Source: Alphaproteobacteria bacterium (GTDB lineage Bacteria; Pseudomonadota; Alphaproteobacteria; G963923945). From it: DNA of 64,000 nucleotides. This document shows, piece after piece, positions 4,167 to 58,318 of the stretch (position 1 is its first letter; each line of letters opens with the position of its first letter). The position numbers were made by a program, and so were the translations under genes. The notes under the pieces were generated by a model that was given only the letters and a program-made list of their open reading frames with translations, did not search any database and was not told where the DNA came from. The stretch covers positions 1,752,413-1,816,412 of the forward strand of contig OZ000551.1 of the NCBI GenBank assembly GCA_963923945.1, read 5' to 3'.

Positions 4167-4970
4167 ATGAATCTTTTAGGTAACGCGGTTCAACGGTTCC
4201 GATGGGCCGGGGTGGTGGTTGTATTGGGGATGTTGATATGCCCTCGCCTTGAGGCGGCTCCCCTTTCCTGTTTTGACTGGGATACGGCTGATTTTTTTGA
4301 GCAAGCCCGTTTGCAGGATGTGACGGCCTGCCTGGAAAAAGGATATGATCCCAATGCGCCTGATGAGTATGGATTGACGTCTTTGCATTTTGCGGCTCGG
4401 CACAGCAATCCAGCGGTGATCACCACTTTGCTGGATGCCGGGGCCGATCTTCAGGTTTTCGGTCCGTATATGAAAACGCCCCTCCATTATGCCGCCCATT
4501 ACAGTCAAAATCCGGCGGTGATCACCACCTTGTTGGATGCCGGGGCCGATCTTAAAGCTCTCGGCGGGTTCTATGGGGAAACGCCCCTCCATTATGCGGC
4601 TCGATTCAATAACAATCCGGCGATCCTCACCACCTTGTTGGCTGCCGGGGCGGATATTCAGGCCCCGGATAAAGATGATGAAACGCCTCTGCATGATGCG
4701 GCTGAATATAATCAAACCCCGGCCGTAATCACCGCTCTGCTGAATGCCGGGGCCGATCTTGAGGCGCTGAATAATCGCGGTGAGACTCCTTTGCATGACG
4801 CGGTTCGGGTCAATAAAAATCCGCAGATTGTTGCCACCTTACTGAAAGCCGGGGCCGATCCCAAAGCCCAGACCAAGGAGGGTAAACAGCCTTGGGAATT
4901 GGTCAAGAAAGACTCACCCCTTTATCAGAGTGCGGTTTATGAGGTTTTGCGGCAAGGCGAGACCGAATAA
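4167..4970 (+). CDS. secreted ankyrin-repeat protein (about 6 ANK repeats)
   Basis: N-terminal signal peptide (VVVLGMLICPRLEAAP); repeated TPLHxAA...NPAVITTLLxAGAD 33-aa units; N and C termini are paralogous to the next gene. Confidence 0.85.
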   Translation: MNLLGNAVQRFRWAGVVVVLGMLICPRLEAAPLSCFDWDTADFFEQARLQDVTACLEKGYDPNAPDEYGLTSLHFAARHSNPAVITTLLDAGADLQVFGPYMKTPLHYAAHYSQNPAVITTLLDAGADLKALGGFYGETPLHYAARFNNNPAILTTLLAAGADIQAPDKDDETPLHDAAEYNQTPAVITALLNAGADLEALNNRGETPLHDAVRVNKNPQIVATLLKAGADPKAQTKEGKQPWELVKKDSPLYQSAVYEVLRQGETE

Positions 4971-5093: not shown

Positions 5094-6938
5094 ATGAAGA
5101 CTTTAGATATTGTCGATGCGGCGCGTTTTATATGCCCGATGACCAAACGGTTCGGCTGGGCGGTTGTGTTGGGGCTGTTGATGCTGGTGCCTGCGCGGGC
5201 TGAGGCGACTCTCTCCTGTTCGGACTGGAATACGTATGATTTTTTCAACCAAGCCAGCCCGCAAGATGTGACGGCTTGTCTGGATGCCGGGGCGGATATT
5301 CAGGCCCGCAATAAGGATGGATGGACTCCCTTACATCTTGCGGCGGGACTCAATGAAAACCCGGCGGTGATTACCACCTTGCTGAAAGCCGGAGCGGATA
5401 TTCAGGCCCGCAATAAAGATGGATGGACTCCCCTGCATCAGGCAGCGGGATTCAATGAAAACCCGGCGGTGATTACCACCTTGCTGAAAGCCGGGGCGGA
5501 TATTCAGGTGCGCAATAAGGATGGATTCACTCCCCTGCATCTTGCGGTGGAATTCAATGAAAATCCGGAAATGATTACCACCTTGCTGAAAGCCGGGGCC
5601 GATCTTGAGGCCCAGCACAAGGATGGATGGACTCCCCTGCATTATGCGGCGGAAGACAATGAAAATCCGGAAATGATTACCACCTTGCTGAAAGCCGGAG
5701 CGGATATTCAGGCCCGCAATAAAGATGGATTCACTCCCTTGCATTCTGCGGCGGGATTCAATGAAAACCCGGCGGTGATTACCACCTTGCTGAAAGCCGG
5801 GGCGGATATTCAGGTGCGCAATAAGGATGGATGGACTCCCCTGCATCAGGCAGCGGGATTCAATGAAAACCCGGCGGTGATTACCACCTTGCTGAAAGCC
5901 GGAGCGGATATTCAGGCCCGCAATAAAGATGGATTCACTCCCTTGCATTCTGCGGCGGGATTCAATGAAAACCCGGCGGTGATTACCACCTTGCTGAAAG
6001 CCGGGGCGGATATTCAGGCCCGCGATAAGGATGGGGCGACTCCTCTGCATTATGCGGCGGGAGGCAATGAAAATCCGGAAATGATTACCACCTTGCTGAA
6101 AGCCGGAGCGGATATTCAGGCCCGCAATAAAGATGGATTCACTCCCTTGCATTCTGCGGCGGGATTCAATGAAAACCCGGCGGTGATTACCACCTTGCTG
6201 AAAGCCGGAGCGGATATTCAGGTGCGCAATAAAGATGGATGGACTCCCCTGCATCAGGCAGCGGGATTCAATGAAAACCCGGCGGTGATTACCACCTTGC
6301 TGAAAGCCGGGGCGGATATTCAGGTGCGCAATAAAGATGGATGGACTCCCCTGCATTATGCGGCGGAAGACAATGAAAATCCGGAAATGATTACCACCTT
6401 GCTGAAAGCCGGGGCCGATCTTGAGGCCCAGCACAAGAATGGATGGACTCCCCTGCATCAGGCAGCGGGATTCAATGAAAACCCGGCGGTGATCAGCAGC
6501 CTGCTGGAAGCCGGGGCGGATATTCAGGCCCGCGCTAAGAATGGATTGACTCCCCTACATCTTGCGGCTCGGTATAATGAAACCCCGGCGGTGGTTACCA
6601 CTTTACTGAAAGCTGGGGCTGATTCTAACGCCCGCAATGAGGATAGGGCGACTCCTCTGCATTTTGCGGCGGGAGGCAATGAAAACCCGGAAATGATTAC
6701 CACCTTGCTGAAAGCCGGAGCGGATATTCAGGCCCGCGATAAGGATGGGGCGACTCCTCTGCATTTTGCGGCGGGAGGCAATGAAAACCCGGAAATGATC
6801 ACCACCCTGCTGAAAGCCGGGGCCGATCCCAAAGCTCGGACCAAGGAGGGTAAACAGCCTTGGGAGTGGGTTCCTGAGGATTCTCCCTTGCGTGAAAGTG
6901 CGGTTTACTGGATTTTGCATGAGGCTCAATTTCAATAA
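5094..6938 (+). CDS. secreted ankyrin-repeat protein with about 15 near-identical tandem ANK repeats
   Basis: Signal peptide (AVVLGLLMLVPARAEA); 33-aa units such as AGFNENPAVITTLLKAGADIQARNKDGWTPLHQA, encoded by nearly identical 99-bp DNA repeats. Confidence 0.9.
   Translation: MKTLDIVDAARFICPMTKRFGWAVVLGLLMLVPARAEATLSCSDWNTYDFFNQASPQDVTACLDAGADIQARNKDGWTPLHLAAGLNENPAVITTLLKAGADIQARNKDGWTPLHQAAGFNENPAVITTLLKAGADIQVRNKDGFTPLHLAVEFNENPEMITTLLKAGADLEAQHKDGWTPLHYAAEDNENPEMITTLLKAGADIQARNKDGFTPLHSAAGFNENPAVITTLLKAGADIQVRNKDGWTPLHQAAGFNENPAVITTLLKAGADIQARNKDGFTPLHSAAGFNENPAVITTLLKAGADIQARDKDGATPLHYAAGGNENPEMITTLLKAGADIQARNKDGFTPLHSAAGFNENPAVITTLLKAGADIQVRNKDGWTPLHQAAGFNENPAVITTLLKAGADIQVRNKDGWTPLHYAAEDNENPEMITTLLKAGADLEAQHKNGWTPLHQAAGFNENPAVISSLLEAGADIQARAKNGLTPLHLAARYNETPAVVTTLLKAGADSNARNEDRATPLHFAAGGNENPEMITTLLKAGADIQARDKDGATPLHFAAGGNENPEMITTLLKAGADPKARTKEGKQPWEWVPEDSPLRESAVYWILHEAQFQ
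5290..6830 (+). repeat. coding tandem array of 99-bp units with higher-order near-exact repeats over 200 bp
   Basis: Direct reading shows blocks such as ...caataaagatggattcactcccttgcattctgcggcgggattcaatgaaaacccggcggtgattaccaccttgctgaaagcc... recurring almost verbatim; the antisense ORF 5331-6458 is a repeat artefact. Confidence 0.9.
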
Positions 6939-8715: not shown

Positions 8716-9115
8716 GATACGGTTTTCATGATGATACGATTTCCATTACTTAAGAGGGTATTTTTAGAAATATTCACGACATGCATATTGTGAATGATTG
8801 CGGTGTTGTGAATGATTGCGGTGTTGGACCTTTTGTCATATAAGGCAAAGTGATTGGAAGTTTATGTTTTTGACATGATTTTGAATGTCTCAATCCTATA
8901 TACTTTATTATGCATTATGAATAATAATTGTATGAATAATAATTGATTGTGGTGCACGGACAATCAATGACGTTCAATAATGATTCATGCAATCATGATT
9001 GATATGAAGATGCGGCCGCAGACAGGTATTTTAATCGGCCCTTCCTTTATATGAGATTTGATTTTGGTGGAACACCACATTTTTGTGGAATCTTCAGTGG
9101 AGAAACAATCGAACA

Positions 9116-10233: not shown

Positions 10234-11100
10234 ATGATGAGTCAGGGTAAAATTTTTGGCGTGGTTGTCTTGGCGTTATTGGCACTTGTTGCTTATGGCA
10301 GCTTGTTTACGGTTAGCCAGATTCATCAAGCGATTGTCCTGCAATTTGGTGAGCCTAAGCGGGTTATCCGTGATCCAGGTCTGCATGCCAAGCTGCCTTT
10401 TATTCAGAATGTGGTCGAATATGATAAGCGTATCTTGGATTATGATCATCCGGTGCAAGAAGTGATTGCCCTGGATAAAAAGCGGCTGTTGGTTGATGCT
10501 TTTGCCCGCTATCGCATCGTTAACCCCTTGGAGGTTTATAAACGTGCTTCAACAGAGGGCCAGGTCTTACGCTTGCTGGGACCGATTCTTGATGCTGATT
10601 TACGTAGTGTTGTCGGTTTGGTGCCTTTGAATTCCCTGCTTAGTGATGAGCGTGAGGAAATTATGGCGCGTATCCGCAAGCGGGTAAATACCAAGCTCGA
10701 ACCGATTGGGCTTGAGGTTCTTGATGTGCGTATTCGTCGGGCTGATCTGCCCACTCAGAACAGCCAAGCAATTTATGAACGTATGAAGAGCGAACGCGAA
10801 CGCGAAGCCAAGGATTTACGGGCTAAAGGTGCCGAAGTGGCACAAAAAATCCGCTCTGAGGCGGATCGTGAGCGCACCGTCATCTTGGCACAAGCGGATA
10901 AAGAAGGCGAGATTTTACGCGGTGAAGGCGATGGGAAGGCCAATGATATTTATGCCGATGCTTTTGGTCGTGACCCGGAATTTTTCAAATTTTATCGCTC
11001 AATGCAAGCCTATCGAAAATCCCTGACTTCCCGCGATACATTGGTTCTCAGCCCGGATGGCGATTTTTTTGAATATTTCAATGAGACCAACCAGCCATAG
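10234..11100 (+). CDS. hflC: protease modulator HflC
   Basis: SPFH domain protein 3 nt after hflK; N-terminal TM (IFGVVVLALLALVAYGSLF). Confidence 0.85.
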   Translation: MMSQGKIFGVVVLALLALVAYGSLFTVSQIHQAIVLQFGEPKRVIRDPGLHAKLPFIQNVVEYDKRILDYDHPVQEVIALDKKRLLVDAFARYRIVNPLEVYKRASTEGQVLRLLGPILDADLRSVVGLVPLNSLLSDEREEIMARIRKRVNTKLEPIGLEVLDVRIRRADLPTQNSQAIYERMKSEREREAKDLRAKGAEVAQKIRSEADRERTVILAQADKEGEILRGEGDGKANDIYADAFGRDPEFFKFYRSMQAYRKSLTSRDTLVLSPDGDFFEYFNETNQP

Positions 11101-11203
11101 CGGGTCCATCGCTGATAGGGTGCCGAATTTATGATACCGGGTTGCTCCTTTGGTGGAGGCAATAAACTATATGGTGATGATCCTGTGATGATCCTGTTGC
11201 GCG

Positions 11204-11415: not shown

Positions 11416-11762
11416 CCGCCTTTAATGACAGTGTCTTGAGCATATTTATACTCTCAAGCATATTGATATGACTTTAAGTTGCGTTCAATAATCAACGATC
11501 AGTATTGCAGCGTGATGCCATGAGCAAGATTTTAAAGACAAAATTGTAACGACAAGATTTTAAGCAGGGGTTCTGGGAGTCTTTATCGGATACTGTGAAT
11601 ATTTAAGATGCTGAGGTGATTGTCATATTTACACCATATTGGTGTTCCATTTCTGATTGTTGGCGGTATTTTTAGTCATGTATTCTCACTCATCACGTAT
11701 TTGTTTTCATTAAACACATAATTTTAATACTGTCGTATTTTTATATTGGAGGTCGGATCACG

Positions 11763-13331
11763 ATGTCTTTGTCGCATATGATCACGCATATCACTGTTTC
11801 GCGCCTTGTTATCATCCGTCTTGTTATCATCCGTCTTGGGGCCATTTTTTTGGTCCCGCGCGGTGGGTTCAAGAGGCCCCGCTTAGCGGGTGGTTTTCCT
11901 GTTGCATTTGTGGTTGCCCTGGTTTCCTGCCTGTTATGGGTTTCTCCTAGTGCAGCCCGTCCGGCCCCTGATGGTTTTGCTGATCTGGCCGAGAGATTGT
12001 TGCCTGCGGTGGTTAATATCTCGACCACTCAAGAGATGCAGCAAAGTGAGATGGAGCCCAATTTTCCGGTTCCAAAACTGCCACCCGGTTCCCCTTTTGA
12101 AGATTTTTTCCGCGACTTCATGGAACGTGGTCGTCCCAACCCCCACCGCAACAGTCACTCGCTCGGTTCTGGATTCGTCATTGATTCGGGTGGCTATATT
12201 GTCACCAACAACCATGTCATTGCTGAAGCATCTGAGGTGCGGGTAATCTTCCACGATGGGAAACAACTTGAAGCTGAGGTTATTGGTCGTGACGATAAAA
12301 CGGATTTGGCCCTGCTTAAAGTGGAGAGTGACACCCCTTTGGTTGCGGTTCCTTTTGCTGATTCCGATCAGGCCCGGGTCGGTGATTGGGTGGTGGCCAT
12401 CGGCAATCCCTATGGTCTTGGCGGAACGGTGACGGCGGGGATTATTTCGGCCCGGGCTCGGGATATCAATTCCGGTCCTTATGACGATTATATTCAGACC
12501 GATGCCTCAATTAACCGAGGCAATTCCGGGGGGCCTTTGTTCAACCTGCAAGGTGAAGTGGTGGGCGTTAACACGGCGATTTTTTCGCCAACCGGCGGCA
12601 GTATTGGGATCGGTTTTTCGATTCCGGCCAATTTGGCCAAGCCGGTGCTGGCGCAATTACGTGAGTTTGGTCAGACCCGTCGCGGTTGGCTGGGTGTGCG
12701 GATTCAGCAAGTGACCGATGAAATTGCCGATAGCCTGGGGATGAAGGAAGAAACCGGTGCTCTGGTGGCCAAGGTCAATCCCGGCGAACCAGCAGCCAAA
12801 GCCGGTATAAAACCAGGCGATGTCATTATTGAATTTGATGGCAAGCTGGTGCCGGGTGTACGTAAGCTTCAACGTATTGTCGCTGAAACCGATATCAATC
12901 GACCGGTTCGGGTCACAGTGTGGCGCGATGAGGGCGAGAAAGTCCTGACCGTCACCGTGGGGGAGCTTGAATCCTTTGAAAAGGCGGCCCTCTCGAAAAG
13001 CGGTGATGATACAACCCAAACCACCACCCAGTTTGATGGTATGGGGATGACGCTCTCTTCCTTGACCCCTAATCTGCGCCGCCAATTTGATCTCAAAGAT
13101 GTTGATGCCGGTGTGGTGATCACCGATGTCGATAAAGATGGTCAAGCCGCCGAGCGCGGGCTGCGCCAGGGCGATGTGATTGTCGAAGTGGGGCAAGAAG
13201 AGGTCAATTCACCCGATCAGATCAGTCAAAAATTGGAAGAAGCCGCCAAAAAAGATAAAAAATCTGTGTTGTTTCTGGTCGAACGTGAAGGCGATTTACG
13301 CTTTATTCCGATGAAATTACGTTCGGGCTAG
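11763..13331 (+). CDS. degP: periplasmic serine endoprotease DegP/HtrA (start probably downstream, near the signal peptide)
   Basis: Catalytic triad context (GNSGGPL), trypsin-like domain plus two PDZ domains; signal-like segment AFVVALVSCLLWVSPSAA. Confidence 0.85.
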   Translation: MSLSHMITHITVSRLVIIRLVIIRLGAIFLVPRGGFKRPRLAGGFPVAFVVALVSCLLWVSPSAARPAPDGFADLAERLLPAVVNISTTQEMQQSEMEPNFPVPKLPPGSPFEDFFRDFMERGRPNPHRNSHSLGSGFVIDSGGYIVTNNHVIAEASEVRVIFHDGKQLEAEVIGRDDKTDLALLKVESDTPLVAVPFADSDQARVGDWVVAIGNPYGLGGTVTAGIISARARDINSGPYDDYIQTDASINRGNSGGPLFNLQGEVVGVNTAIFSPTGGSIGIGFSIPANLAKPVLAQLREFGQTRRGWLGVRIQQVTDEIADSLGMKEETGALVAKVNPGEPAAKAGIKPGDVIIEFDGKLVPGVRKLQRIVAETDINRPVRVTVWRDEGEKVLTVTVGELESFEKAALSKSGDDTTQTTTQFDGMGMTLSSLTPNLRRQFDLKDVDAGVVITDVDKDGQAAERGLRQGDVIVEVGQEEVNSPDQISQKLEEAAKKDKKSVLFLVEREGDLRFIPMKLRSG

Positions 13332-13460
13332 AATGTATTTTATCCTTGTACAGCCGGGCTGATCCGCGCTTTCTTGCCAGGCGACACCGGGAGAAAATCG
13401 CCAATTTCTGCCTGATAAAGCGCGTAGATGCGCTGAGATTGATGCGGTGAGGATGGGTTT

Positions 13461-14414
13461 ATGACCGGTCCCCTTTTGCTGGTTGCCGGACCAACGGCCA
13501 GCGGTAAATCGGCTTTGGCCAGAGATCTGGCCAAAACAATTGGCGGCGTGGTCATCAATGCTGACAGCATGCAGCTTTATGCTGATTTGCCGATTCTCAC
13601 TGACCAACCGGTTGAAAGGGCTGGGATTCCCCATCGGCTTTACGGAATTCTTGAAGCGTCTGAAACCTGCTCTGCTGGACGTTGGCGGGGCTTGGCCCGC
13701 CATCAGGTTGAAGCGGCTTGGGCCGCCGGGTTGGTCCCTATTTTGACCGGTGGTTCTGGTCTTTATCTACGGAGTTTTTTTGGTGGGTTGGCGGCAATAC
13801 CGCCCATTCCAGAGGTGATCCGTACTCAAGCTGTGGCATTGCGCAATCGTCTCGGTGCGGAGGAATTTCATCGTTGTTTGGCCGCCCGTGATCCGCAATC
13901 AGCAGACCGTCTGCATATCCATGATACCCAAAGGGTCACCCGGGCTTGGGAAGTGTTCGAAACCACCAAAATCCCCCTTTCTCAGTGGCAACGCCAGACA
14001 GAATCCCATCATACCGGCCCGGCTTTGGCCATCCTGCTCACTGTGGAAAAAGCCGCCTTGGATGAGGCGATTGCGGCCCGTTTTTCCTCAATGCTTGCGC
14101 GCGGCGTCTTGGCGGAAGTCGAACAATTTATGAATCGTGATCTTTCAGCATCCTTACCGATTATGAAAGTTCTTGGCTTGCCGCAACTGGCCCGTCATAT
14201 CCGGGGAGAATGCCCTCTTGAGACGGCGGTCGAAGAAGCGATCATCGCCACCCGACGTTATGCCAAACGTCAGAGGACCTGGTTCCGTCATCAGTCTTTT
14301 GGCCTCAATGTAACGATAAAGACGCTTGAAAAAAAATATTATGAACAAGAAAAGGCTAAAATTTATTCTTTCATGATGAAAAAGCTATTGACCCCTCAAC
14401 CTGGTTTTGTTTAG
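13461..14414 (+). CDS. miaA: tRNA dimethylallyltransferase
   Basis: P-loop GPTASGKS and DSMQLY motif. Confidence 0.85.
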   Translation: MTGPLLLVAGPTASGKSALARDLAKTIGGVVINADSMQLYADLPILTDQPVERAGIPHRLYGILEASETCSAGRWRGLARHQVEAAWAAGLVPILTGGSGLYLRSFFGGLAAIPPIPEVIRTQAVALRNRLGAEEFHRCLAARDPQSADRLHIHDTQRVTRAWEVFETTKIPLSQWQRQTESHHTGPALAILLTVEKAALDEAIAARFSSMLARGVLAEVEQFMNRDLSASLPIMKVLGLPQLARHIRGECPLETAVEEAIIATRRYAKRQRTWFRHQSFGLNVTIKTLEKKYYEQEKAKIYSFMMKKLLTPQPGFV

Positions 14415-21432: not shown

Positions 21433-21685
21433 CTGTGGTGCTGTATTGATATTATTTGTTGTTTTGTGGTAGGTTAGGAGATTAGTTTTTAGTATTGATT
21501 GATCTATAGTCTGTTATTCATTGATTTCTCTATTATTGATTGATATGTCTGTTGATTGACCTATGGTCTGTTATTCATTAATCCATAATCTATTCAATAA
21601 GTTAATCTATTCAATAAGTTATAATTTATCTTTGAGAATTTCGCTGATTTTTTTGATCTGATTTTAATTTCATGGGGGCCTCGCC

Positions 21686-22571: not shown

Positions 22572-23078
22572 ATGATCAATTTATGGCAACGGCTTGACTC
22601 TATGACGCGTGATATCGTGCCCTTTGCGGTTGCGGTGTTTCTCACTCTTATCAGTTCTCTGCCGTTGCCAATTTCTGGCGGTTCGGCGGTGACGCCCATT
22701 TTATCTTTGATTGCATTTTTTTATTGGTATTTGATCCGTCCTGATCTTATGCCGGTTCTGGCGGGTTTTGTTCTTGGGTTGCTTCAAGATATTCTCAGCG
22801 GTGTGCCTTTGGGTCTCCATGCTCTGGCGTATCTTCTTGTTGCTGAGGTGGTGTCCCGTCGTTGGTTTGGACTATCCCGGGAGAGTTTTCGGTCGATGTG
22901 GTTGGGTTTTGCTCTGACGTCTTACGGTTTGGGGATGATCATGTGGCTGTTTTATAGCTTGTTTCACTTCCATTATATCAGCCCGGACATGTATGCTATG
23001 CGTATGATCATCACACTTTTTGCTTTTCCACCTTCGGTTTGGGCATTTGCCGCGATCCACCGTCATATTCTTCGGTAG
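22572..23078 (+). CDS. mreD: rod-shape determining protein MreD
   Basis: Polytopic 168-aa membrane protein after mreC. Confidence 0.7.
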   Translation: MINLWQRLDSMTRDIVPFAVAVFLTLISSLPLPISGGSAVTPILSLIAFFYWYLIRPDLMPVLAGFVLGLLQDILSGVPLGLHALAYLLVAEVVSRRWFGLSRESFRSMWLGFALTSYGLGMIMWLFYSLFHFHYISPDMYAMRMIITLFAFPPSVWAFAAIHRHILR

Positions 23079-23097
23079 GTCATATTCTTCGGTAGGT
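23064..23097 (+). repeat. 17-bp tandem duplication (catattcttcggtaggt x2) spanning the mreD stop / mrdA start junction
   Basis: The first copy contains the mreD TAG (23076-23078); the second copy ends 1 nt before the mrdA ATG (23099). Confidence 0.9.
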
Positions 23098-34657: not shown

Positions 34658-34857
34658 GCTGTTTGATAAAGAAGTCTGTAATTGAAAACCCTATGATACC
34701 AATCATTCTTGACCGCCACCATCTGTAAGGTGGTTCTGATGAGGTTCTTTTGGCTTGTACATATTTGGTTGATGGGTCACGATACCGCATAATTTATATC
34801 GCATCATTATGAGATTTCTTTTAAGCTAAAATGCGAAAAACGTCAGGATACAAAATA

Positions 34858-34947
34858 TCGGGACGAAAAGTATCAGGACGAAAAGTATCAGGACGAAAAG
34901 TATCAGGACAAAAAGCATCAGGACAAAAAGCATCAGGACAAAAAGTA
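34858..34947 (+). repeat. 6 tandem copies of a 15-bp unit (tcaggacRaaaagYa), with degenerate copies either side (34843-34962)
   Basis: tcgggacgaaaagta tcaggacgaaaagta tcaggacgaaaagta tcaggacaaaaagca tcaggacaaaaagca tcaggacaaaaagta, ending 17 nt before the LysM-protein ATG at 34964. Confidence 0.9.
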
Positions 34948-34963
34948 TCAAAAAGGTGGCGGT

Positions 34964-36055
34964 ATGACCCGTAACATTGGGATAGGGATTGTTTCACTTC
35001 TGTTTGTGGTTGGCCTGGCTGTGTGGATGCTCGGCAGTGACCCCGAAGATGGCGACCAGGAAAGCGTCAGTCAGAACAATACCGACCAAAAAGATCAGGA
35101 AACGGGGCGGGACCATTCTGGAACCGCTGCCGATGCGGCGATCCAAGAACCCTCAGCTGATTCCGTTGAATCGGCGGCTTCTGAGCCTTCTCAAGATTCG
35201 CCTCCTCAATATTCGATTGCTATGCAGCCACGTTTTGATGTGGTACGTGTGGCTCCAGATGGGGCGGCGGTTTTGGCTGGTCGTGCGCCTCCGGGTACGG
35301 TGGTGCATATCTATAACGGTTCGGATTCCATTGGTCGGGTGGAAGCAGACAAACGGGGTGAATGGGTCTGGATTCCGCAGCGTCCCTTCCCTCCCGGCCA
35401 GCTGGAATTGACATTGCGTTCCTATGGGCCGGGATCAGATGATTTTATCGAATCGTCTGAGGTTGTTTTGATGGTTCTCCCGGAAAGAAAACCGGGAACC
35501 GACCAGGCAGCTTTGATCGTTAAAGTGGATCGAGATGGCGATGCCCCCAGCCAGTTGATTCAACTCCCTTCAGGGCAATCGGCGGCGGTTGATCTGGCTC
35601 TTGATACCGTTGATTACGGAGAAGACGGGGCTTTACGCTTATCTGGACGGGCCGTTCCCGGGTCCCGTCTGCGGCTTCAGCTTGATGGGGTGATGTTGGG
35701 TCAAGTCACTGTTGGCGATGATTCGCGCTGGACTCTTTCCCCTGATCGCACTGTTACAGCTGGTGATTATCTCCTACGGATTGAGCGGCTGGATGAAAAA
35801 AACCGCGTGATGAGTAGTCTTGAATTGCCCTTCCATCGGGCTTCTCGGGAACAAATCGCTCAAGTCGCTGATGATCCGGGGAATTGGGTGGTTCAGCCGG
35901 GAAATAGCCTCTGGCGGATTGCCCGACATCTTTATGGAAAAGGAGTCCATTTCACGGTTATTTATGAGGCCAACCGTTCCAAAATCAGTCATCCGGACCT
36001 TATTTATCCAGGTCAGATTTTCACAACCCCATCCGGGGACAATAGGCAACCCTAA
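34964..36055 (+). CDS. LysM-domain peptidoglycan-binding protein
   Basis: N-terminal TM, acidic Ser/Asp-rich linker, C-terminal LysM (VVQPGNSLWRIARHLYGKGVHFTVIYEANRSKISHPDLIYPGQIF). Confidence 0.7.
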   Translation: MTRNIGIGIVSLLFVVGLAVWMLGSDPEDGDQESVSQNNTDQKDQETGRDHSGTAADAAIQEPSADSVESAASEPSQDSPPQYSIAMQPRFDVVRVAPDGAAVLAGRAPPGTVVHIYNGSDSIGRVEADKRGEWVWIPQRPFPPGQLELTLRSYGPGSDDFIESSEVVLMVLPERKPGTDQAALIVKVDRDGDAPSQLIQLPSGQSAAVDLALDTVDYGEDGALRLSGRAVPGSRLRLQLDGVMLGQVTVGDDSRWTLSPDRTVTAGDYLLRIERLDEKNRVMSSLELPFHRASREQIAQVADDPGNWVVQPGNSLWRIARHLYGKGVHFTVIYEANRSKISHPDLIYPGQIFTTPSGDNRQP

Positions 36056-44149: not shown

Positions 44150-44510
44150 CAGTATTTTCAGTGATGATTTTTCTCATTACGTTATTTTTACACGTTATTT
44201 TTACCGGTGATCATTTTGATGCGATGACCGTTTTCATCTGTGATATCTTTTCGGTATTTGTTTGAGATTTTTTCTCAAAAACCAGTACCAGGGTATTTTC
44301 AATCAATCAGCCTTTAGACATAGATTAAAGGCATACAAAATTAAAGGCATAAAAATACCCATGCATCAGTTAATATATATTGGGCTTGAACGACCATCAA
44401 TCGACTTGGAATTTTTTTCGAGCTCTGGTCGGTGTTGTTCATCTTTAAGCGGCCGCAGCACTCAGACATTTTTTCAGTTGGTTTAAAGAATTGACCGATT
44501 TCAAGCGCGG

Positions 44511-49771: not shown

Positions 49772-50066
49772 AACAGAAAGTGACTCCTTGCGGTAATTTC
49801 CTAGCATAAAATATGCTGGTCAATCGACCCTGATAGAGGCTGAACACCGACCGGACTCACCTGACCGGATGATTCTATACATTCATTTGTGACTGCGGCG
49901 GCTTATTTGCAAGGGTCGGCGTATTGAGGGTCTGGGCATTGATTGATTCCGTAAATATATTGAGAGATAAATAATCACCCGAACAATACATATGATGATT
50001 ATATATGCTGGTGATGGATTGACTGGCCGGGGCTGGATAACCGGGACTGGATAACCGGGACTATGC

Positions 50067-52555: not shown

Positions 52556-53020
52556 ATGTTTGCTGAATTGATGGCCAGTTTGGCGGTTTGGATCAGTCTC
52601 AATACCCATTATCCGCCTCTTGAGCGATTGCCCGATGTGCAATCCCTGCCACGCCTTGAATTGCAAGAGCGTTACTGTGATGGTGATTGCCCGATTCGGG
52701 CCTATTATATCTGGGGCGGTGACATTCATATAGCTGATGACCTCGACCCGGAAAATAATGTCTGTGACCGTTCAATCTTGCTCCATGAACTGGTCCATTA
52801 TTTCCAGTATACCGGAGGTCGGTTCGGTGAATTTGGCTCCTATACCCGTCAGGAATTCATTGATGGGGAGGCCTTTGATGTGCAGAATTACTATCTGGTT
52901 TCTGAGGCGGTTTATGAAGGGCTGAGCGGTGAAGCCATGATGACTCGCTGTCATCTCGAACTGGATCAATCCTTATCTCTGTCAGCAACCGGGGGGCGCG
53001 GGACAAGGGTTCATCCGTAG
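52556..53020 (+). CDS. hypothetical protein with an HExxH motif (possible small metallohydrolase)
   Basis: LLHELVHYFQ plus Cys cluster CDGDCP; lies between guaB and guaA. Confidence 0.3.
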   Translation: MFAELMASLAVWISLNTHYPPLERLPDVQSLPRLELQERYCDGDCPIRAYYIWGGDIHIADDLDPENNVCDRSILLHELVHYFQYTGGRFGEFGSYTRQEFIDGEAFDVQNYYLVSEAVYEGLSGEAMMTRCHLELDQSLSLSATGGRGTRVHP

Positions 53021-53210: not shown

Positions 53211-54785
53211 TTGGCTCCGGCCCGTGCGACCACAATGACCGAATCTGTCTTGATCCTTGATTTCGGGTCGCAGGTGACCCAGCTGATTGCCCGCCGTGTG
53301 CGTGAAAGCGGGGTTTATTGTGAGATTCACCCCTTTAACGCCTTGGATGATCAAGCAATCAAGGATTATGCGGCCAAGGCCGTCATCCTCTCAGGCGGCC
53401 CGGCGTCGTTCGGTTTTCATGAAGCGCCCCGGGTGCCGACGGCGGTTTTCACCCTCGGGGTGCCGGTTTTAGGGATTTGCTACGGCCAACAAGCGCTTTG
53501 TGCGCAGTTGGGTGGTGTTGTTGAATCCAACCGGTCGCGTGAATTCGGGCGGGCGGTTCTGGAGATTCAAGCACCATGCCGTCTGTTTGATTCGGTCTGG
53601 AAACCGGGGGATACACCGCAAGTATGGATGAGCCATGGCGACCGGATTACCCGCTTGCCGGAAGGATTCAAAGCGGTTGCGGCCAGCCAGGGTGCACCTT
53701 ATGCGATTATTGCTGATGAGGCCCGGCATTTTTACGGTGTGCAATTCCATCCCGAAGTGATTCATACTCCGGATGGAGCGGCTGTGCTGAATCATTTTGT
53801 CCGTGATATTGCTGGCTGTCGGGGTGATTGGTCGATGCAAGCGTTTCGCGCCCGGGCCGTTGAAGATATCCGGTCCAAGGTCGGGGATGGTCGGGTCATT
53901 TGCGGTCTCTCAGGGGGGGTTGATTCCTCGGTTGCCGCCGTCCTGATCCATCAAGCGATTGGTCAACAACTGACCTGTGTATTTGTCGATACCGGCTTGT
54001 TGCGCCAGGGTGAGGCCAAAGATGTGGTCGCTTTGTTTGGTGATCATTTCAAGATTCGTCTGATCCATAGGGAGGCCGGGGCGGTGTTTCTCTCCGGCCT
54101 CAAAGATGTCACCGACCCGGAGCGCAAGCGCAAGATTATTGGGGGTCTTTTCGTTGAGCTGTTTGAGCAAGAGGCAACCGCCATCGGTGGGGCGGATTTC
54201 CTGGCTCAAGGCACCTTATATCCAGATGTCATTGAATCGGTTTCGGTTGCTGGGGGTCCTTCAGCGACCATTAAATCGCATCATAATGTGGGGGGGTTGC
54301 CCGAACACATGCAAATGACTTTGGTTGAACCCTTGCGGGATTTATTCAAGGATGAGGTGCGTATTCTGGGTCGGGAATTGGGTCTCCCTGCGGACATGCT
54401 GGGCCGCCATCCTTTCCCAGGCCCGGGATTGGCCATTCGTATCCCCGGCGTGGTGACACAGGAAAAACTGGCTATTTTACGCCAAGCCGATGCGATTTAT
54501 CTGGATGAAATTCGCCGGGCCGGGTTGTATGATCAGATATGGCAGGCTTTTGCCGTGCTTTTGCCGGTCAAGACGGTCGGTGTGATGGGGGATGCGCGCT
54601 CTTATGATTATGTCTGTGGGTTACGGGCGGTGCGAGCAACCGATGGTATGACCGCCGAAAGTTATCCTTTCTCCCATGAATTTCTCACCCATACCGCCAC
54701 CCGAATCATCAATGAGGTGAGTGGGATCAATCGGGTGGTGTATGATGTGACCTCCAAACCCCCCGGCACCATTGAGTGGGAGTGA
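53211..54785 (+). CDS. guaA: GMP synthase (glutamine-hydrolysing)
   Basis: GATase1 domain ([18 protein letters not shown]...GICYGQQ), ATP-PPase SGGVDSSV motif, C-terminal dimerisation domain. Confidence 0.95.
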
Positions 54786-54889
54786 TTTTTCTCTGAAAAA
54801 CAACTCTTGCCAGGGGTTTGAATTGACACTCAATGGACTCAAAAATGGATGAGCCTGAAGCAAGAAAGAACAAATAAAGCGATAACACG

Positions 54890-55672
54890 ATGTCCAGAAA
54901 CCCGTTACGGAAACTTCGTTTTCTTATCAGAACGAACGCGCCAATTTGGGCGATCACTACGTATTTTTGTCTCCATTATCGTCATCGTTTGTCGCATAAA
55001 AGAGGTGAATTTAAGAAACTGCAAAAAGATTTTAGAGAAAAATCAAAAAACCTAAAGATTGATAATGATTGGTTTACAGAAAATATCCCGACTTGGTTGA
55101 GAGCATTTCAAGAGGCTCAACTCGACTCTGATCAAGCATTAAAATGTTTAGAGATTGGGAGCTGGCAAGGCTTATCAGCTTTTTTTGTTCTTGATGTTTT
55201 TCCTCATGCACAGATCACATGCGTCGATACATGGGAGGGTGGTGATGAACATAAATCATTTAATGCCTCGACGCCGCAAATACTTGGCGGCATAGAGATG
55301 TGTTTTGATCTGAATCTGAAACAGTTTTCCGATAGAACCAAAAAATATAAAGGGACCTCTCGTTCCTATTTTAATGATCAAATTACCTCTGATGGGTTCG
55401 ATTTGATCTATGTTGATGGTTCCCATCACTGTGATGATATTATGGTGGATGCTGTTCAATCATTTGAAATCCTTAAAGTCGGAGGTCTGCTCATATTCGA
55501 CGATTATTTTTGGGAATATTATGACAATGAAATTGATAATCCCGCTGGAGCGATCAACGCATTTTTACGCTTGAAACGCCATCAGCTTGAAATTATTTGC
55601 TTTGACTATCAGCTCATCATCAGAAAATTGCGCCGCTCAATGAGGATTGAGGGTCCCCATGAGACCAGGTGA
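54890..55672 (+). CDS. class I SAM-dependent methyltransferase (Methyltransf_24/TylF-like O-methyltransferase family)
   Basis: LEIGSWQGLSAFF...VDTWEGGDEH...FDLIYVDGSHHCDDIMVDAVQSFEILKVGGLLIFDDY. Confidence 0.55.
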   Translation: MSRNPLRKLRFLIRTNAPIWAITTYFCLHYRHRLSHKRGEFKKLQKDFREKSKNLKIDNDWFTENIPTWLRAFQEAQLDSDQALKCLEIGSWQGLSAFFVLDVFPHAQITCVDTWEGGDEHKSFNASTPQILGGIEMCFDLNLKQFSDRTKKYKGTSRSYFNDQITSDGFDLIYVDGSHHCDDIMVDAVQSFEILKVGGLLIFDDYFWEYYDNEIDNPAGAINAFLRLKRHQLEIICFDYQLIIRKLRRSMRIEGPHETR

Positions 55673-55991
55673 ATTTGGTGGTTTTTAGAAGGATCTGCGC
55701 AAAATATTTTCCCGCATAATACGCATATGTTTCATACGCATATGTTTCTAGGTGCGATGGCGTTTGAGCACCGCAAAAGGCGTTGATACTGTTAGGGGTC
55801 TGCGTATAGTGCAGAACTTTGATTGCTTCTGGGCGACAAGACCGCTCAAGCCGTTTTTATGAAGGGAATTGACCTCAGCAGTGGAAACCGGATTATTGGC
55901 GTATGACCAGTCTCTGCCTGATTGTCGGGATGTTTCATTTGTCGGCTTTTTTAGACGATACCACCTTTTTTATGATACCGCCATGGATTCA

Positions 55992-56765
55992 TCAATCGGG
56001 TAAAACATACCAGTCATCAAACTGCGAATGAGAAGTTAATATTCTTGTGTAGCCTTGTTTGGTCAGCAATGCATAAATTTTTTCTCGGTTCGATGTGTTG
56101 TTATGCTCACAAGTGATGATTTTGAATCGATATCTTTGGAAGTTCAGAGATTGCAGGATATCCAATTCGCTTCCTTCGGTGTCAATTGATAGATAATCCA
56201 TCATATGTGGAGCGTTATATTTTTCCAACATATCACTGAGGGAGATGGTCAATACCTCATATAAACTGCCATTTTTGCGTGATTTCTTATGCTTATCGCT
56301 GTTAGAAAATTGATCCAAAGTCGATAACCCAATCTGTTTTGTTTCATTGAAAGTCAATGTCGTACCTGTCGTTTTCCATACACAATTCGTTTCAATGTTT
56401 GCCGTCCTATTTTTCTTCAGACAAGCATGGAATTTCTGATCTGGTTCGGCCAAGATACCACTCCATCCGAACCGTTTCTCCAATAAATGGCTGTTGGAAA
56501 AAAGAACACCATCACATGCGCCGAATTCAACAAAATATCCATCACGTTTGAAGCCCGATTTACCCAGCACCAGTAAATCTTGCCCCAGCTGCGATGTGGC
56601 ATAGTCTATATTCTCAAAACAGCGTGCCCAATATTTTTCTTCGATCTGTCGACTGACTTCATAAAGTTGGTATTTTCTCGAATTCTCCAGCTGCTTTTCA
56701 AGAGATGATTTTCGAACAAGTTGACAATCGAATACCCCAAGAATTTTATTGATATAATGTTTCAT
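55992..56765 (-). CDS. FkbM-family methyltransferase
   Basis: FVEFGACDGVLFSNSHLLEKRFGWSGILAEPDQKFHACLKKN and ...LSIDTEGSELDIL are characteristic of Methyltransf_21/FkbM. Confidence 0.6.
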   Translation of the reverse strand: MKHYINKILGVFDCQLVRKSSLEKQLENSRKYQLYEVSRQIEEKYWARCFENIDYATSQLGQDLLVLGKSGFKRDGYFVEFGACDGVLFSNSHLLEKRFGWSGILAEPDQKFHACLKKNRTANIETNCVWKTTGTTLTFNETKQIGLSTLDQFSNSDKHKKSRKNGSLYEVLTISLSDMLEKYNAPHMMDYLSIDTEGSELDILQSLNFQRYRFKIITCEHNNTSNREKIYALLTKQGYTRILTSHSQFDDWYVLPD

Positions 56766-57073
56766 GTTCTTTTTTTATTCTCAGCTGATGCGATTTTTGA
56801 AATGAAAATCCTGTTCATAGGAAATCCTGTTCATAAAGATGTATTTTCAGCAAAACCTTTTTGATATTCTCCTCAACATTAAGGGCGTTACTTGCGCTCA
56901 ATATGCATCTGAGAGACACTCTTTTATGTTTTTTACGGCATGCTCATATGATTTTTTGATCAATGTTTTTGTAAAGGCATTGACGTCTTTTCGTTTCCCG
57001 GTATAGTCCTGTCCCCTTGGCTTCAAGGGGTTGATGCGGCATAAAACAAAATCTATAAAATAACAAAATTTAT

Positions 57074-57161
57074 GAAATAAACAGACAGAATAATTGAAAT
57101 AAACAGACAGAATAATTGAAATAAACAGACAGAATAATTGAAATAAACAGACAGAATAATT
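57074..57161 (+). repeat. 4 perfect tandem copies of a 22-bp unit (gaaataaacagacagaataatt)
   Basis: Read directly from the sequence; about 200 bp upstream of rplU at the edge of the low-GC insertion; no unique spacers, so not CRISPR. Confidence 0.9.
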
Positions 57162-57357
57162 GGCGTCAATTTTCAAGATTATCTGAAATCAGCGCTGTTA
57201 TGAATGTGAGATTCATATAAGATTCATATAAATGTAAAATAAATGTAAGGGTGTGTTGGGTTGGTGATCACTCCTTAATGATTGGGGTCTTTTCTTGGTC
57301 GTTATCCCTGAGTTTTTATGCATATTTTTAAGGGACTGTTTTTTTAAGGATTGTTTG

Positions 57358-57912
57358 ATGTATGCCATTATCCGCACCGGTGGGAAGCAATATAAAGTTG
57401 CCAAAGATGATGTGATCGCGGTTGAAAAAATCGCCGCTGATCCCGGTCAATCCATCACATTAAATGATGTGTTGGCTCTTGGTGATGCGGGATCGATAAC
57501 CCTGGGTTCGCCCATAGTTGCCGGGGCGGAGGTCAAAGCCGAAGTGGCCGAACAAACAAGGGGTGACAAGATCATTGTCTTTAAGAAGAAGCGGCGTAAA
57601 AATTATCGCCGTAAATACGGCCATCGTCAGTGCCTCACCATGCTGAAGATTGTTGATATCAAGGCGGCAGGTAAAGCGGTTGTTAAAAAGACTGCCAGCG
57701 AGTCATCGGAACACTCATCATCCAAAAAACCAGCGCAAGCAAAATCCAACAAGAATACAACAGATATAAAAAATCCGACAAAAAAGAAAACCGCTGCCAA
57801 AAAAGCAGTCCAACAATCATCACCCTCTGTTCAGCCAGGTGATGATGCTGAAAAAACGGCGACAGTAAAAAAGCAAACTTCGGGTAAGGCGGCTCAAAAA
57901 ACCCAATCTTAA
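57358..57912 (+). CDS. rplU: 50S ribosomal protein L21 with a Lys/Ala-rich C-terminal extension
   Basis: [25 protein letters not shown]...; start taken at the internal Met of the track ORF. Confidence 0.85.
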
Positions 57913-57972
57913 GAAAATTTGAGTTTTAAGGAAATTAGGCCTTAAGCAAGCTTCAAGAAGGAGTGATCCGGC

Positions 57973-58233
57973 ATGGCGCATAAGAAATCGGGTGGCAGTT
58001 CACAAAATGGCCGCGATACCATCGGTCGCCGCCTTGGGGTCAAAAAATTTGGCGGTGAGCGGGTGGTTCCGGGAAATATTTTGGTCCGTCAGCGTGGGTG
58101 TCGATTCCACCCCGGGGACAATGTCGGTATGGGGCGTGATCATACCCTCTTTGCTCTCAAAGAAGGACATGTTACCTTCCCGCGTAAGTCTGGAGGACGG
58201 GTTTTGGTGGCGGTGCAGCCCTTGGCTGACTGA
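57973..58233 (+). CDS. rpmA: 50S ribosomal protein L27
   Basis: [31 protein letters not shown]... Confidence 0.95.
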
Positions 58234-58267
58234 ATTCCCCGTCCTGGCGGCGGCTTTTGGTTTTGGC

Positions 58268-58318
58268 CGCTACCAAGTGGCGGCTTTCAGTCAGTCGCTA
58301 CCAAGTGGCGGCTTTTAA
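58268..58318 (+). terminator. paired terminator-like hairpins formed by a duplicated 20-bp unit after rpmA
   Basis: cgctaccaagtggcggcttt occurs twice (58268-58287 and 58296-58315); each copy can form a GC-rich stem, (G[CT]CGC)-taccaagtg-GCGGC, followed by a T tract. Confidence 0.35.

Follow-up and report, generated by a model that had tools for sequence, protein, structure and literature searches.

How two genes for SAM-dependent methyltransferases came to lie by themselves between guaA and rplU, and what they might do there, is the question raised by one low-GC interval of the 64,000-nucleotide stretch of alphaproteobacterial DNA considered here (hereafter the window). The islet is real but, as far as this analysis goes, fairly ordinary: a small genomic islet whose probable role is the decoration of surface sugars.

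The guaA–rplU spacer and its two genes

When considered from the point of view of base composition, the islet coincides with the whole guaA–rplU spacer (54,786–57,357; 2572 bp), and nowhere else in the 64 kb does the GC content stay below 44% for as long. Its GC content of 38.1%, against 51.0% in the rest of the window, bears out the fall in GC between these two genes that a first-pass annotation, made from the letters of the DNA, had claimed. The left boundary is guaA (53,235–54,785, plus strand), encoding a GMP synthase of 516 aa (P0241) with the Pfam domains GATase and GMP_synt_C, and the right boundary is rplU (57,358–57,912, plus strand), encoding ribosomal protein L21 with a Lys/Ala-rich tail (PF00829, 8.1e-40). 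The left flank comprises rlmE, guaB, a conserved 154-aa ORF and guaA, and the right flank rplU, rpmA, obg and proB, followed farther right by what are presumably proA and nadD, named by gene order alone; guaA and rplU were named by Pfam and the other flanking genes from the gene tables of relatives. The host genome, of about 2.1 Mb, is reduced and ankyrin-rich, and the alphaproteobacterium that carries it is probably host-associated.

Only two ORFs of at least 100 aa are found in the islet, both of them encoding methyltransferases, and they are arranged as the convergent pair that had been described: a Methyltransf_24-family gene on the plus strand (54,890–55,672) and an FkbM-family gene on the minus strand (55,992–56,765). 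The low GC spans both coding regions and all three codon positions. The codon comparison that had been proposed as a check places both genes below the other ORFs: GC3 is 0.37 in the Methyltransf_24 and 0.40 in the FkbM gene and averages 0.535 (sd 0.053) over 47 other ORFs, and the GC1 values are 0.46 and 0.42 against about 0.6 elsewhere.

The plus-strand gene encodes an intact class I SAM-dependent methyltransferase of 260 aa, which matches PF13578 over the full length of the profile (positions 1–105 of 105; 58.4 bits against a cut-off of 26.3, 1.5e-15) and PF01596 marginally (22.6 against a cut-off of 22). The NCBIfam scan of this protein matched nothing and the TylF-family profile gave no match at E ≤ 0.01, so that the Methyltransf_24 half of the original label “TylF/Methyltransf_24” stands and the TylF half is not supported. 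All 32 invariant columns of a 36-sequence alignment, which itself contains the islet protein, are present; in the glycine-rich SAM-binding motif I (LEIGSWQGLS), E88, G90 and G94 are invariant. The AF2 model (pLDDT 91.9) shows alternating beta-alpha elements, and a Foldseek search with it returned hundreds of methyltransferase fold matches, led by SafC, MeT1, CCoAOMT and SpnH and also including catechol O-methyltransferases and DsyB among the leaders. The residues D176, D204 and D205 are likewise invariant and fall opposite the metal-binding IDAD and DN motifs of 3cbg, in a sequence alignment that is itself non-significant (E 0.41). In fold and acidic triad the enzyme thus appears to resemble cation-dependent O-methyltransferases. 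The best homologue is 62% identical, among 458 matches.

The minus-strand gene encodes an intact FkbM-family SAM-dependent methyltransferase of 257 aa, matching both PF05050 (65.6 bits against a cut-off of 22.7, 7.7e-18, profile positions 2–171 of 173) and TIGR01444 (43.2 bits against a cut-off of 37.7, 5.2e-11). All 55 invariant columns of a 33-sequence alignment, again one that contains the islet protein, are present. The AF2 model has a pLDDT of 90.5, and the fold search with it returned generic Rossmann methyltransferases only; PDB sequence searches, both single-sequence and profile, were non-significant for either islet protein, and neither has a close relative among characterized enzymes. 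The best FkbM homologue is 61% identical, among 5376 matches.

Variation at the site and the structure of the spacer

The synteny of guaA and rplU in relatives, the other check that had been proposed, reveals three different states of this site in three sister genomes. In the closest relative, L084 (guaA 89% identical), the spacer measures 387 bp and has no methyltransferase genes, whereas in L085 (guaA 86% identical) it measures 2.66 kb, of which about 2.07 kb is at 40% GC, and has a different cargo, namely two decayed Acyl_transf_3 fragments (5.6e-12 and 1.3e-5) followed by an inverted partial copy of rplU. Homology with both relatives stops at the guaA stop codon and resumes some 17–20 nt before the rplU ATG. 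At more distant alphaproteobacterial loci, where guaA is 65–72% identical, rplU was not found in the available downstream flank (≤10 kb), and the guaA–rplU junction is therefore specific to a narrow clade. The nearest homologues of both genes, about 60% identical, come from unrelated marine bacteria, and at most of the homologue loci examined the GC content of the homologue is lower than that of the surrounding DNA. The islet thus combines presence/absence polymorphism at a conserved site with atypical coding composition; the pair is not clade-wide at the site and its composition is not core-like. Together with the foreign GC3, the roughly 60% identity of the best homologues and the lack of methyltransferase genes at the site in L084, this upholds the horizontal acquisition first proposed, and the islet was very probably acquired horizontally, at a hotspot.

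Other mobile sources were also considered. A plasmid origin was rejected, as plasmid matches were at most 42% identical and lay on large rhizobial replicons, and so was a phage origin, as viral contigs yielded only 31–35% identical relatives of the Methyltransf_24 protein and none of the FkbM protein. PADLOC found no match, and PHROGs gave weak, generic methyltransferase matches only.

The spacer also holds two promoter-like elements. The first, E1 (55,770–55,812, plus strand; AAAGGCGTTGATA-N16-TATAGT), lies between the two genes, is directed into the FkbM 3' end and has hexamers at 55,783–55,788 and 55,805–55,810 that agree with a promoter at 10 of 12 positions. It is 88% identical over 43 nt to positions 10338–10380 of L084, about 170–215 nt upstream of rplU in that genome, and is an rplU promoter-like relic of the ancestral spacer. 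The second copy, E2 (56,973–57,007, plus strand; AAAGGCATTGACG-N16-TATAGT), lies 351 nt upstream of the rplU ATG and is 76% identical over 37 nt to an element of L085. The 12-mer AAAGGCRTTGAY occurs exactly, within the 64 kb, at E1 and E2 only, and E2 is likely the working rplU promoter here. Because the 43-nt ancestral relic separates the two genes, the islet is composite rather than one contiguous insert, and the view of it as a single inserted block has to be given up, with one promoter-like copy between the genes and a second upstream of rplU. Such a duplication of the promoter suggests how the expression of an essential operon may survive the arrival of foreign DNA in its leader. A consensus scan alone predicts a terminator-like hairpin with a T-run (55,830–55,858, plus strand) past both E1 and the Methyltransf_24 gene. 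In local alignments of parts of the spacer to L084 and L085, only the 43-nt promoter element and the region of the ribosome-binding site stood out, the remaining scores being those of shuffles; neither an L21 leader nor any RNA family came out of a permissive Rfam scan of 54,500–58,300, and ARAGORN called no tRNA or tmRNA in the vicinity of the islet.

Tandem repeats are frequent in the same interval. A perfect 2 × 15-bp duplication lies just past the Methyltransf_24 gene (55,719–55,748), and one of 2 × 14 nt with a 16-nt period in the divergent spacer between the FkbM gene and rplU (56,806–56,835). A perfect 4 × 22-bp array (TGAAATAAACAGACAGAATAAT; 57,073–57,160), abutted by an imperfect 17-bp repeat of 2.1 copies (57,045–57,080), lies between E2 and rplU, in what is predicted to be the rplU leader, and is followed by two adjacent 2 × 11-bp duplications (57,209–57,248). 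The 22-mer of the array has no other occurrence in the window, and 0 matches were obtained with shuffled sequence. A repeat of this kind in a leader makes a phase-variable contingency locus one candidate reading; the perfection of the array would fit a recent expansion, but similar repeats are found throughout the genome. A 92-aa ORF over the array has no family match. Although the repeats described earlier are indeed there, within 1–2 nt of where they had been placed, the short tandem duplications among them are not a property of the islet: the window holds 14 perfect short tandem duplications, against about 0.1 in shuffles, 11 of which lie outside the islet, and similar ones occur in the relatives. 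Short tandem duplications are thus a genome-wide trait shared with relatives and not a mark of the islet.

The last guaA codons contain the 8-bp core GAGTGGGA (54,774–54,781), the homology with relatives breaks 4 nt after it, and the guaA 3' site matches a published direct-repeat consensus at 18 of 20 positions. This core is the attachment site of guaA-targeting genomic islands (PMC9376610, PMC7775301). A conserved P4-type integrase lies about 300 bp downstream of guaA in four of 67 alphaproteobacterial guaA loci, and Methyltransf_24 homologues lie directly downstream of guaA in two other distant lineages (L088/L089 and L111). Among the ORFs of the islet (54,786–57,357) there is no integrase gene, and no IS element is present; when the guaA 3' end and the attachment core were sought across the islet, no second copy emerged and nothing exceeded chance, with two one-mismatch matches to the core seen and two expected, and a repeat search revealed no IS- or MITE-like repeats, direct or inverted, at the flanks.

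The core, with the homology break right behind it, could also mean that the islet is what decay has left of a larger island brought in by an integrase, from which the integrase, the distal attachment site and the partner genes have since been deleted, leaving behind methyltransferases perhaps deprived of their substrate. The guaA-targeting P4-type integrases of four alphaproteobacterial genomes and of the literature cited above are in keeping with such a history, as are the decay and rearrangement at the same site in L085 and the lack of a glycosyltransferase nearby. Nevertheless, the two ORFs have kept their full length and lack none of the alignment-invariant columns, neither a trace of an integrase pseudogene nor a distal copy of the attachment site was found, and the promoter relic between the genes argues against the insertion of a single block that was trimmed afterwards. 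The suggestion of a remnant of a larger cluster, also made in the first-pass annotation, fits the decayed cargo of L085, but the two genes of the islet are intact, and we regard this origin as unlikely for them.

Putative function and expression of the pair

The neighbourhoods of homologues point towards sugars. The FkbM homologue P0122 is the last gene of a cluster that also encodes ManC, glycosyltransferases, an epimerase and a GDP-mannose dehydratase-like protein; P0125 lies within a cluster of flippase and glycosyltransferase genes, and P0186 adjoins a sulfotransferase and a GT4 glycosyltransferase. Among the 125 ORFs that flank Methyltransf_24 homologues at 38 loci, the top Pfam families are GDP_Man_Dehyd (6), Epimerase (6), FkbM (5) and GT2 (4), with Acyl_transf_3, GT10 and UDP-glucose dehydrogenase counted three times each. 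The expectation that genes of this kind travel with sugar-modification genes is therefore borne out by P0122, P0125 and the 38-locus count, and some homologues occur in settings without sugar genes. The profile of the FkbM subfamily found one partner only among the Methyltransf_24 loci, so that the pairing of the two families holds at the Pfam-family level alone. In the window itself, none of the 35 identified ORFs (26 by Pfam and nine by homology to genes called in relatives, with about 14 further ORFs outside the scan) is a glycosyltransferase or sugar-nucleotide gene.

In the explanation that we favour, the guaA–rplU spacer holds a recently acquired, small flexible islet, at a site whose cargo differs by genome within the clade. 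Its two cytoplasmic SAM-dependent methyltransferases would act as stand-alone tailoring enzymes, O-methylating the sugars of an LPS O-chain or capsule, a surface polysaccharide whose own biosynthetic genes would lie elsewhere in the genome, and the surface would be altered as it is by serotype-converting modification genes. The Methyltransf_24 gene, which starts 105 nt past guaA, would be transcribed by read-through from guaA, because the terminator scan predicted none in this gap; the FkbM gene would have its own promoter in the AT-rich spacer that it shares with rplU, and rplU would be driven by E2, leaving the ancestral-type E1 stranded between the two genes. What we infer is the substrate, the route of entry and the pattern of transcription. 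Taken whole, from hotspot islet to the O-methylation of surface sugars by stand-alone enzymes and the pattern of expression, this explanation seems reasonably probable, and the glycan O-methylation role, which draws on the homologues' neighbours, has a slightly better than even chance of being right. Of the two roles first suggested for the cargo, that in surface glycans is plausible; no observation points to flagellin. If surface sugars are indeed methylated, strain differences at this site could alter phage or host recognition.

Other targets have to be weighed against a surface polysaccharide. The FkbM family owes its name to a macrolide O-methyltransferase, SafC, catechol and CCoA O-methyltransferases and DsyB are among the top fold matches of the Methyltransf_24 protein, and methyltransferase-only islets without glycosyltransferases recur, all of which would suit a pair whose target is a lipid or some small molecule (an osmolyte or a secondary metabolite, for example). 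This is nonetheless distinctly unlikely, given that neither PKS, NRPS nor other biosynthetic genes are present in the window or beside the homologues examined, and that sugar-nucleotide genes dominate the neighbourhoods of the homologues.

Slightly less probable again is a role of the Methyltransf_24 enzyme tied to guaA or to translation, in which it would methylate tRNA, rRNA or a nucleotide in the manner of TrmR/YrrM. The gene has a foreign composition, neither of the two closest relatives has it, most of its homologues are not near guaA and have sugar genes as their commonest neighbours, and TrmR (5zw4), although among the fold matches, ranks below small-molecule and sugar O-methyltransferases. 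That the gene sits between guaA and a ribosomal protein operon, and that family members come right after guaA in three distant lineages (that of the window, L088/L089 and L111), would agree with such a role, as would the label “predicted O-methyltransferase YrrM” given to homologues by JGI; adjacency to guaA is, however, explained more simply by the known hotspot.

A bolder reading, for which the chances are very slim, joins three parts: a self-sufficient module of the two methyltransferases that would move without glycosyltransferases and target a conserved, non-glycan component of the cell; a guaA–rplU spacer that would swap cassettes in this clade without an integrase; and a stranded E1 that would drive FkbM antisense, together with an expanding 22-bp array that would tune the ribosomal operon. 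Its first part, if correct, would explain both the methyltransferase-only islets and the recurrence downstream of guaA in distant lineages. Finally, it is extremely improbable that the genes are native and owe their low GC to a mutational bias acting locally on a long intergenic region, since, even though a high AT content and many tandem duplications mark the intergenic DNA of this genome, the low GC runs through both coding regions at every codon position, both genes are missing from both relatives, and their nearest homologues, at about 60%, belong to unrelated marine bacteria.

Comparison with known systems

The islands that target the guaA 3' end, such as GIsul2 and ICERspD18B, share with the islet their site, their atypical composition and their absence from relatives, and the islet DNA starts right after the guaA stop codon with the core intact. 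In contrast to them, the islet has no integrase, AlpA, direct repeat of the attachment site or transfer genes, measures 2.6 kb, contains a relic of the ancestral spacer and carries two methyltransferases as its cargo in place of resistance genes.

Lone methyltransferases had been described as odd in such a position, but their homologues occur in similar islets. For instance, in Stappia stellulata (AUIM01000012.1) an islet with Methyltransf_25, Methyltransf_24 and FkbM genes and no glycosyltransferase lies between two housekeeping (opp) operons; its Methyltransf_24 protein is 51% identical to that of the islet and its gene adjoins an FkbM-family gene, as here, which is strongly low in GC (0.42 against 0.62). 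It differs in its co-directional genes, its third methyltransferase and its other chromosomal site, and its FkbM protein belongs to a different subfamily, tblastn giving no match to the islet FkbM.

Among characterized enzymes, the Methyltransf_24 model shares a common Rossmann fold with MeT1 of Mycobacterium hassiacum (6g80), SafC (5lhm), the Synechocystis OMT (3cbg) and SpnH (4ce0), at Foldseek E values of about 1e-8 and a TMq of 0.5–0.58 but with sequence identities of only 14–19%. Of these enzymes, MeT1 is a mannoside and SpnH a rhamnosyl methyltransferase. Unlike all four, the Methyltransf_24 family has a conserved helical N-terminal extension of about 80 residues.

The RfbT/WbeT methyltransferase of Vibrio cholerae and the Oac-type Acyl_transf_3 acetyltransferases of Shigella are stand-alone, serotype-converting modifiers of glycans. 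The islet differs from them in having no phage or gtr context. What it would share with them is the principle of a lone tailoring enzyme whose glycan substrate is the product of other loci and whose presence varies from one close relative to the next; a polysaccharide cluster (L090) contains both FkbM and RfbT-type domains, and the cargo of L085 at this very site is an Acyl_transf_3 gene, as are the Oac-type genes of Shigella. The islet is a clean example that introduces no new kind of system and leaves current concepts unchanged, in which a reduced genome still varies its accessory genes, small tailoring cassettes being swapped at one hotspot beside an essential ribosomal operon.

Composition and setting of the guaA–rplU islet

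When considered from the point of view of base composition, the spacer between guaA and rplU (54786-57357) is the sole run of more than about 1 kb in the window that stays below 44% GC, with 38.1% GC vs 51.0% in the remainder (window mean, 50.5%). It carries two convergent genes, one for a Methyltransf_24 protein of 260 aa (54890-55672, + strand; Pfam PF13578, 1.5e-15) and the other for an FkbM protein of 257 aa (55992-56765, - strand; PF05050, 7.7e-18; TIGR01444, 5.2e-11). This agrees with the first-pass annotation, except for its label "TylF", since the former protein matches only PF13578 and, marginally, PF01596. The islet is flanked on the left by rlmE, guaB, a conserved 154-aa ORF and guaA, and on the right by rplU, rpmA, obg and proB (guaA and rplU named via Pfam, the others via the gene tables of relatives). 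The 154-aa ORF (52556-53020, between guaB and guaA) contains an HExxH-like motif (HELVH), is conserved at 91-92% in the two closest relatives, L084 and L085, and has no match in Pfam, NCBIfam, PHROG or PADLOC. The window also encodes a permuted-type tmRNA (ARAGORN), which marks the organism as an alphaproteobacterium.

The composition of both methyltransferase genes deviates at each of the three codon positions: GC3 is 0.37 and 0.40 vs 0.535 ± 0.053 in 47 other long ORFs, and GC1 is 0.46 and 0.42 vs about 0.6 elsewhere. The exact product of each gene occurs once among 5.8 billion proteins searched, on a contig of 2,099,932 bp, the next best matches being 62% and 61% identical; where a source is named for the homologues, it is a Tara ocean sample or a marine genus (e.g., Stappia or Shimia).

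L084 and L085 were the two closer genomes found by a guaA search, and the spacer differs in each. In L084 (guaA 89%, guaB 93% and rpmA 95% identical to the window), only 387 bp separate guaA from rplU, without methyltransferase genes. In L085 (a 2.07-Mb contig; guaA 86% identical), the spacer measures 2.66 kb and contains a small ORF (94-96 aa) and about 2.07 kb of low-GC cargo (40% GC) with two decayed Acyl_transf_3 fragments (PF01757, 5.6e-12 and 1.3e-5; ~12500-12733 and ~12970-13650, the second frame-disrupted), followed by an inverted partial rplU duplicate (13619-14077, minus strand); the cargo region including this duplicate spans 11552-14077. Shared homology among the three genomes ends at the guaA stop codon and restarts 17-20 nt before the rplU ATG, so that the spacer shows three states in three sister genomes, a polymorphism of mild interest. 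Distant Alphaproteobacteria (guaA 65-72% identical) keep the order rlmE-guaB-guaA and lack rplU in the available downstream flank (up to 10 kb); the guaA-rplU junction is therefore confined to the narrow clade of the window genome. Because the two genes are not shared at this place across the clade with core-like composition, the horizontal acquisition proposed from the sequence alone stands, supported both by the foreign composition and by the lack of methyltransferase genes at the site in L084.

A composite insertion at the guaA 3′ end

The islet had been described simply as an insertion, a view that needs correction. A short stretch of the spacer is conserved, namely a promoter-like element, AAAGGCGTTGACA-N16-TATAGT, located ~170-215 nt before rplU in L084 and ~100-145 nt before it in L085. 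The window contains two copies, E1 and E2, both scoring 10/12 in a promoter scan and sharing the exact 12-mer AAAGGCRTTGAY, which occurs nowhere else within the 64 kb. E1 (55770-55812; matching the L084 element with 88% identity over 43 nt) separates the two methyltransferase genes, is directed into the 3′ end of the FkbM gene and has terminator-like hairpins downstream, and E2 (56973-57007) lies 351 nt upstream of rplU. The remaining spacer sequence aligns to the relatives no better than shuffled sequence. Given these two copies, the islet is composite rather than one block: the two genes may have come in separately, one on each side of the ancestral promoter, or a single event may have duplicated or imported a promoter. 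The duplication of an rplU promoter-like element is itself of mild interest. E2 is likely to be the working promoter of rplU, in which case a perfect 4x22 array (57073-57160) would lie within the rplU leader.

Islands that carry P4-type integrases are documented to use the guaA 3′ end for attachment, with the core 5′-GAGTGGGA-3′ (PMC9376610, PMC7775301). In the window, GAGTGGGA is present at 54774-54781, and the foreign DNA starts 4 nt after it. Downstream of guaA, gene content varies widely: across 67 alphaproteobacterial loci, 134 ORFs represent 129 Pfam families. Four of these loci, from Komagataeibacter xylinus, Aminobacter aminovorans, Nitrospirillum sp. and an uncultured alphaproteobacterium (MAG), carry a P4-type tyrosine integrase ~300 bp after guaA (L046 11836-13092, L061 11836-13092, L068 11860-13164, L078 11860-13116); it is 73-86% identical between genomes, and GC falls after guaA in all four, suggesting that Alphaproteobacteria have a family of guaA-targeting islands. 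Two further lineages, both distantly related, also have a Methyltransf_24 homologue directly downstream of guaA, a recurrent placement of mild interest: L088 (7477-10765) and L089, assigned to gammaproteobacteria only from the gene order xseA-guaB-guaA, and L111 (8402-10732), a 63% GC locus in which the homologue has native GC (62%), with EamA transporter genes downstream. Neither an integrase nor a distal copy of att is present in the islet itself; entry via a guaA-targeting island, then deletion, is plausible. The two-gene islet is, in sum, recently acquired, composite and situated at a known hotspot.

Tandem duplications in the window and its relatives

Short tandem duplications had been noted as part of the insertion. 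All those listed for the islet are real, within 1-2 nt: besides the 4x22 array, whose 22-mer has no further occurrence in the window, there are a 2x15 repeat (55719-55748), a 2x14 repeat with a 16-nt period (56806-56835) and two adjacent 2x11 repeats (57209-57248). However, perfect tandem duplications with units of 10-30 bp number 14 in the window vs ~0.1 in block shuffles, and 11 of the 14 fall beyond the islet, mainly in intergenic DNA directly upstream of genes; duplications with units of 11-22 bp are found at 1866-1895, 8788-8823, 8916-8945, 11174-11195, 11805-11834, 21586-21619, 23062-23095, 34843-34950, 44179-44204 and 50033-50060. L084 (18214-18292) and L085 (9144-9191, 19660-19730) are likewise repeat-rich (e.g., 17 bp x 4.6 and 16 bp x 3), and inspection of the list reveals no evident common motif among the units. 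These duplications reflect mutation in the intergenic DNA of the clade and are uninformative on the origin of the islet; their excess suggests a bias towards slippage or duplication peculiar to the lineage. The 15-bp x 7 array (34843-34950), which may also vary in copy number, directly precedes the gene of a protein with LysM and Ig-like domains (34964-36055).

In the closest relative, L084, obg is split into two overlapping ORF calls (254 and 140 aa; 11472-12642), with a 33-bp x 3 tandem repeat (11512-11606) next to them; the split could be a true frameshift or an assembly error. The window also holds two ankyrin-repeat protein genes (4167-4970 and 5094-6938), the larger protein having ~15 near-identical 102-bp (34-aa) repeats; such proteins in an alphaproteobacterial genome of ~2.1 Mb suggest a host-associated lifestyle.

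Homologues and likely role of the two enzymes

Some homologues do have a cluster context, but isolated copies are common too, and finding such methyltransferase genes alone between core genes is not odd. One FkbM homologue ends a cluster with GDP-mannose dehydratase-like and epimerase genes, ManC and glycosyltransferases, and others lie within a flippase/glycosyltransferase cluster or adjoin a sulfotransferase and GT4. In 38 loci with a Methyltransf_24 homologue, the most frequent Pfam families among the 125 flanking ORFs are GDP_Man_Dehyd (6), Epimerase (6), FkbM (5) and GT2 (4), followed by Acyl_transf_3 (3), GT10 (3) and UDP-glucose dehydrogenase (3); Acyl_transf_3 is also the decayed cargo of L085. 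The neighbourhoods of these homologues of both enzymes point to sugars.

As for isolated copies, an FkbM gene stands beside a transposase fragment in a Roseobacteraceae genome, and a homing-endonuclease-rich metagenomic islet (L086 9534-11144) holds a Methyltransf_24 homologue with an FkbM gene 5 kb off; a 536-aa protein with faint homing-endonuclease-type DNA-binding matches (NUMOD1, I-TevI) is encoded beside the homologue, and a 2OG-Fe(II) oxygenase gene is close by. In Stappia stellulata (L176 7077-9812, AUIM01000012.1), a trio of Methyltransf_25, Methyltransf_24 and FkbM genes without a glycosyltransferase sits between two opp (oligopeptide ABC-transporter) operons, its FkbM gene having 42% GC in a 62% GC locus. 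Since homologues in most loci have a GC content below that of their surroundings, both families circulate as cargo. No glycan genes are found among the 35 identified window ORFs, and the pair is best read as stand-alone tailoring O-methyltransferases acting on a putative substrate, a surface polysaccharide synthesised by genes at other loci.

The two proteins are full length and, being themselves rows in the alignments, have all invariant residues (32 fully invariant columns in the Methyltransf_24 set and 55 in the FkbM set). The FkbM model (pLDDT 90.5) matches generic methyltransferase folds only. The Methyltransf_24 model (pLDDT 91.9) resembles cation-dependent O-methyltransferases (Foldseek E ~1e-8, TMq 0.5-0.58), and in a weak sequence alignment its invariant D176 and D204-D205 fall on the IDAD and DN motifs of 3cbg; its fold matches include SafC, the mannoside methyltransferase MeT1, CCoAOMT-type enzymes and the rhamnosyl methyltransferase SpnH.
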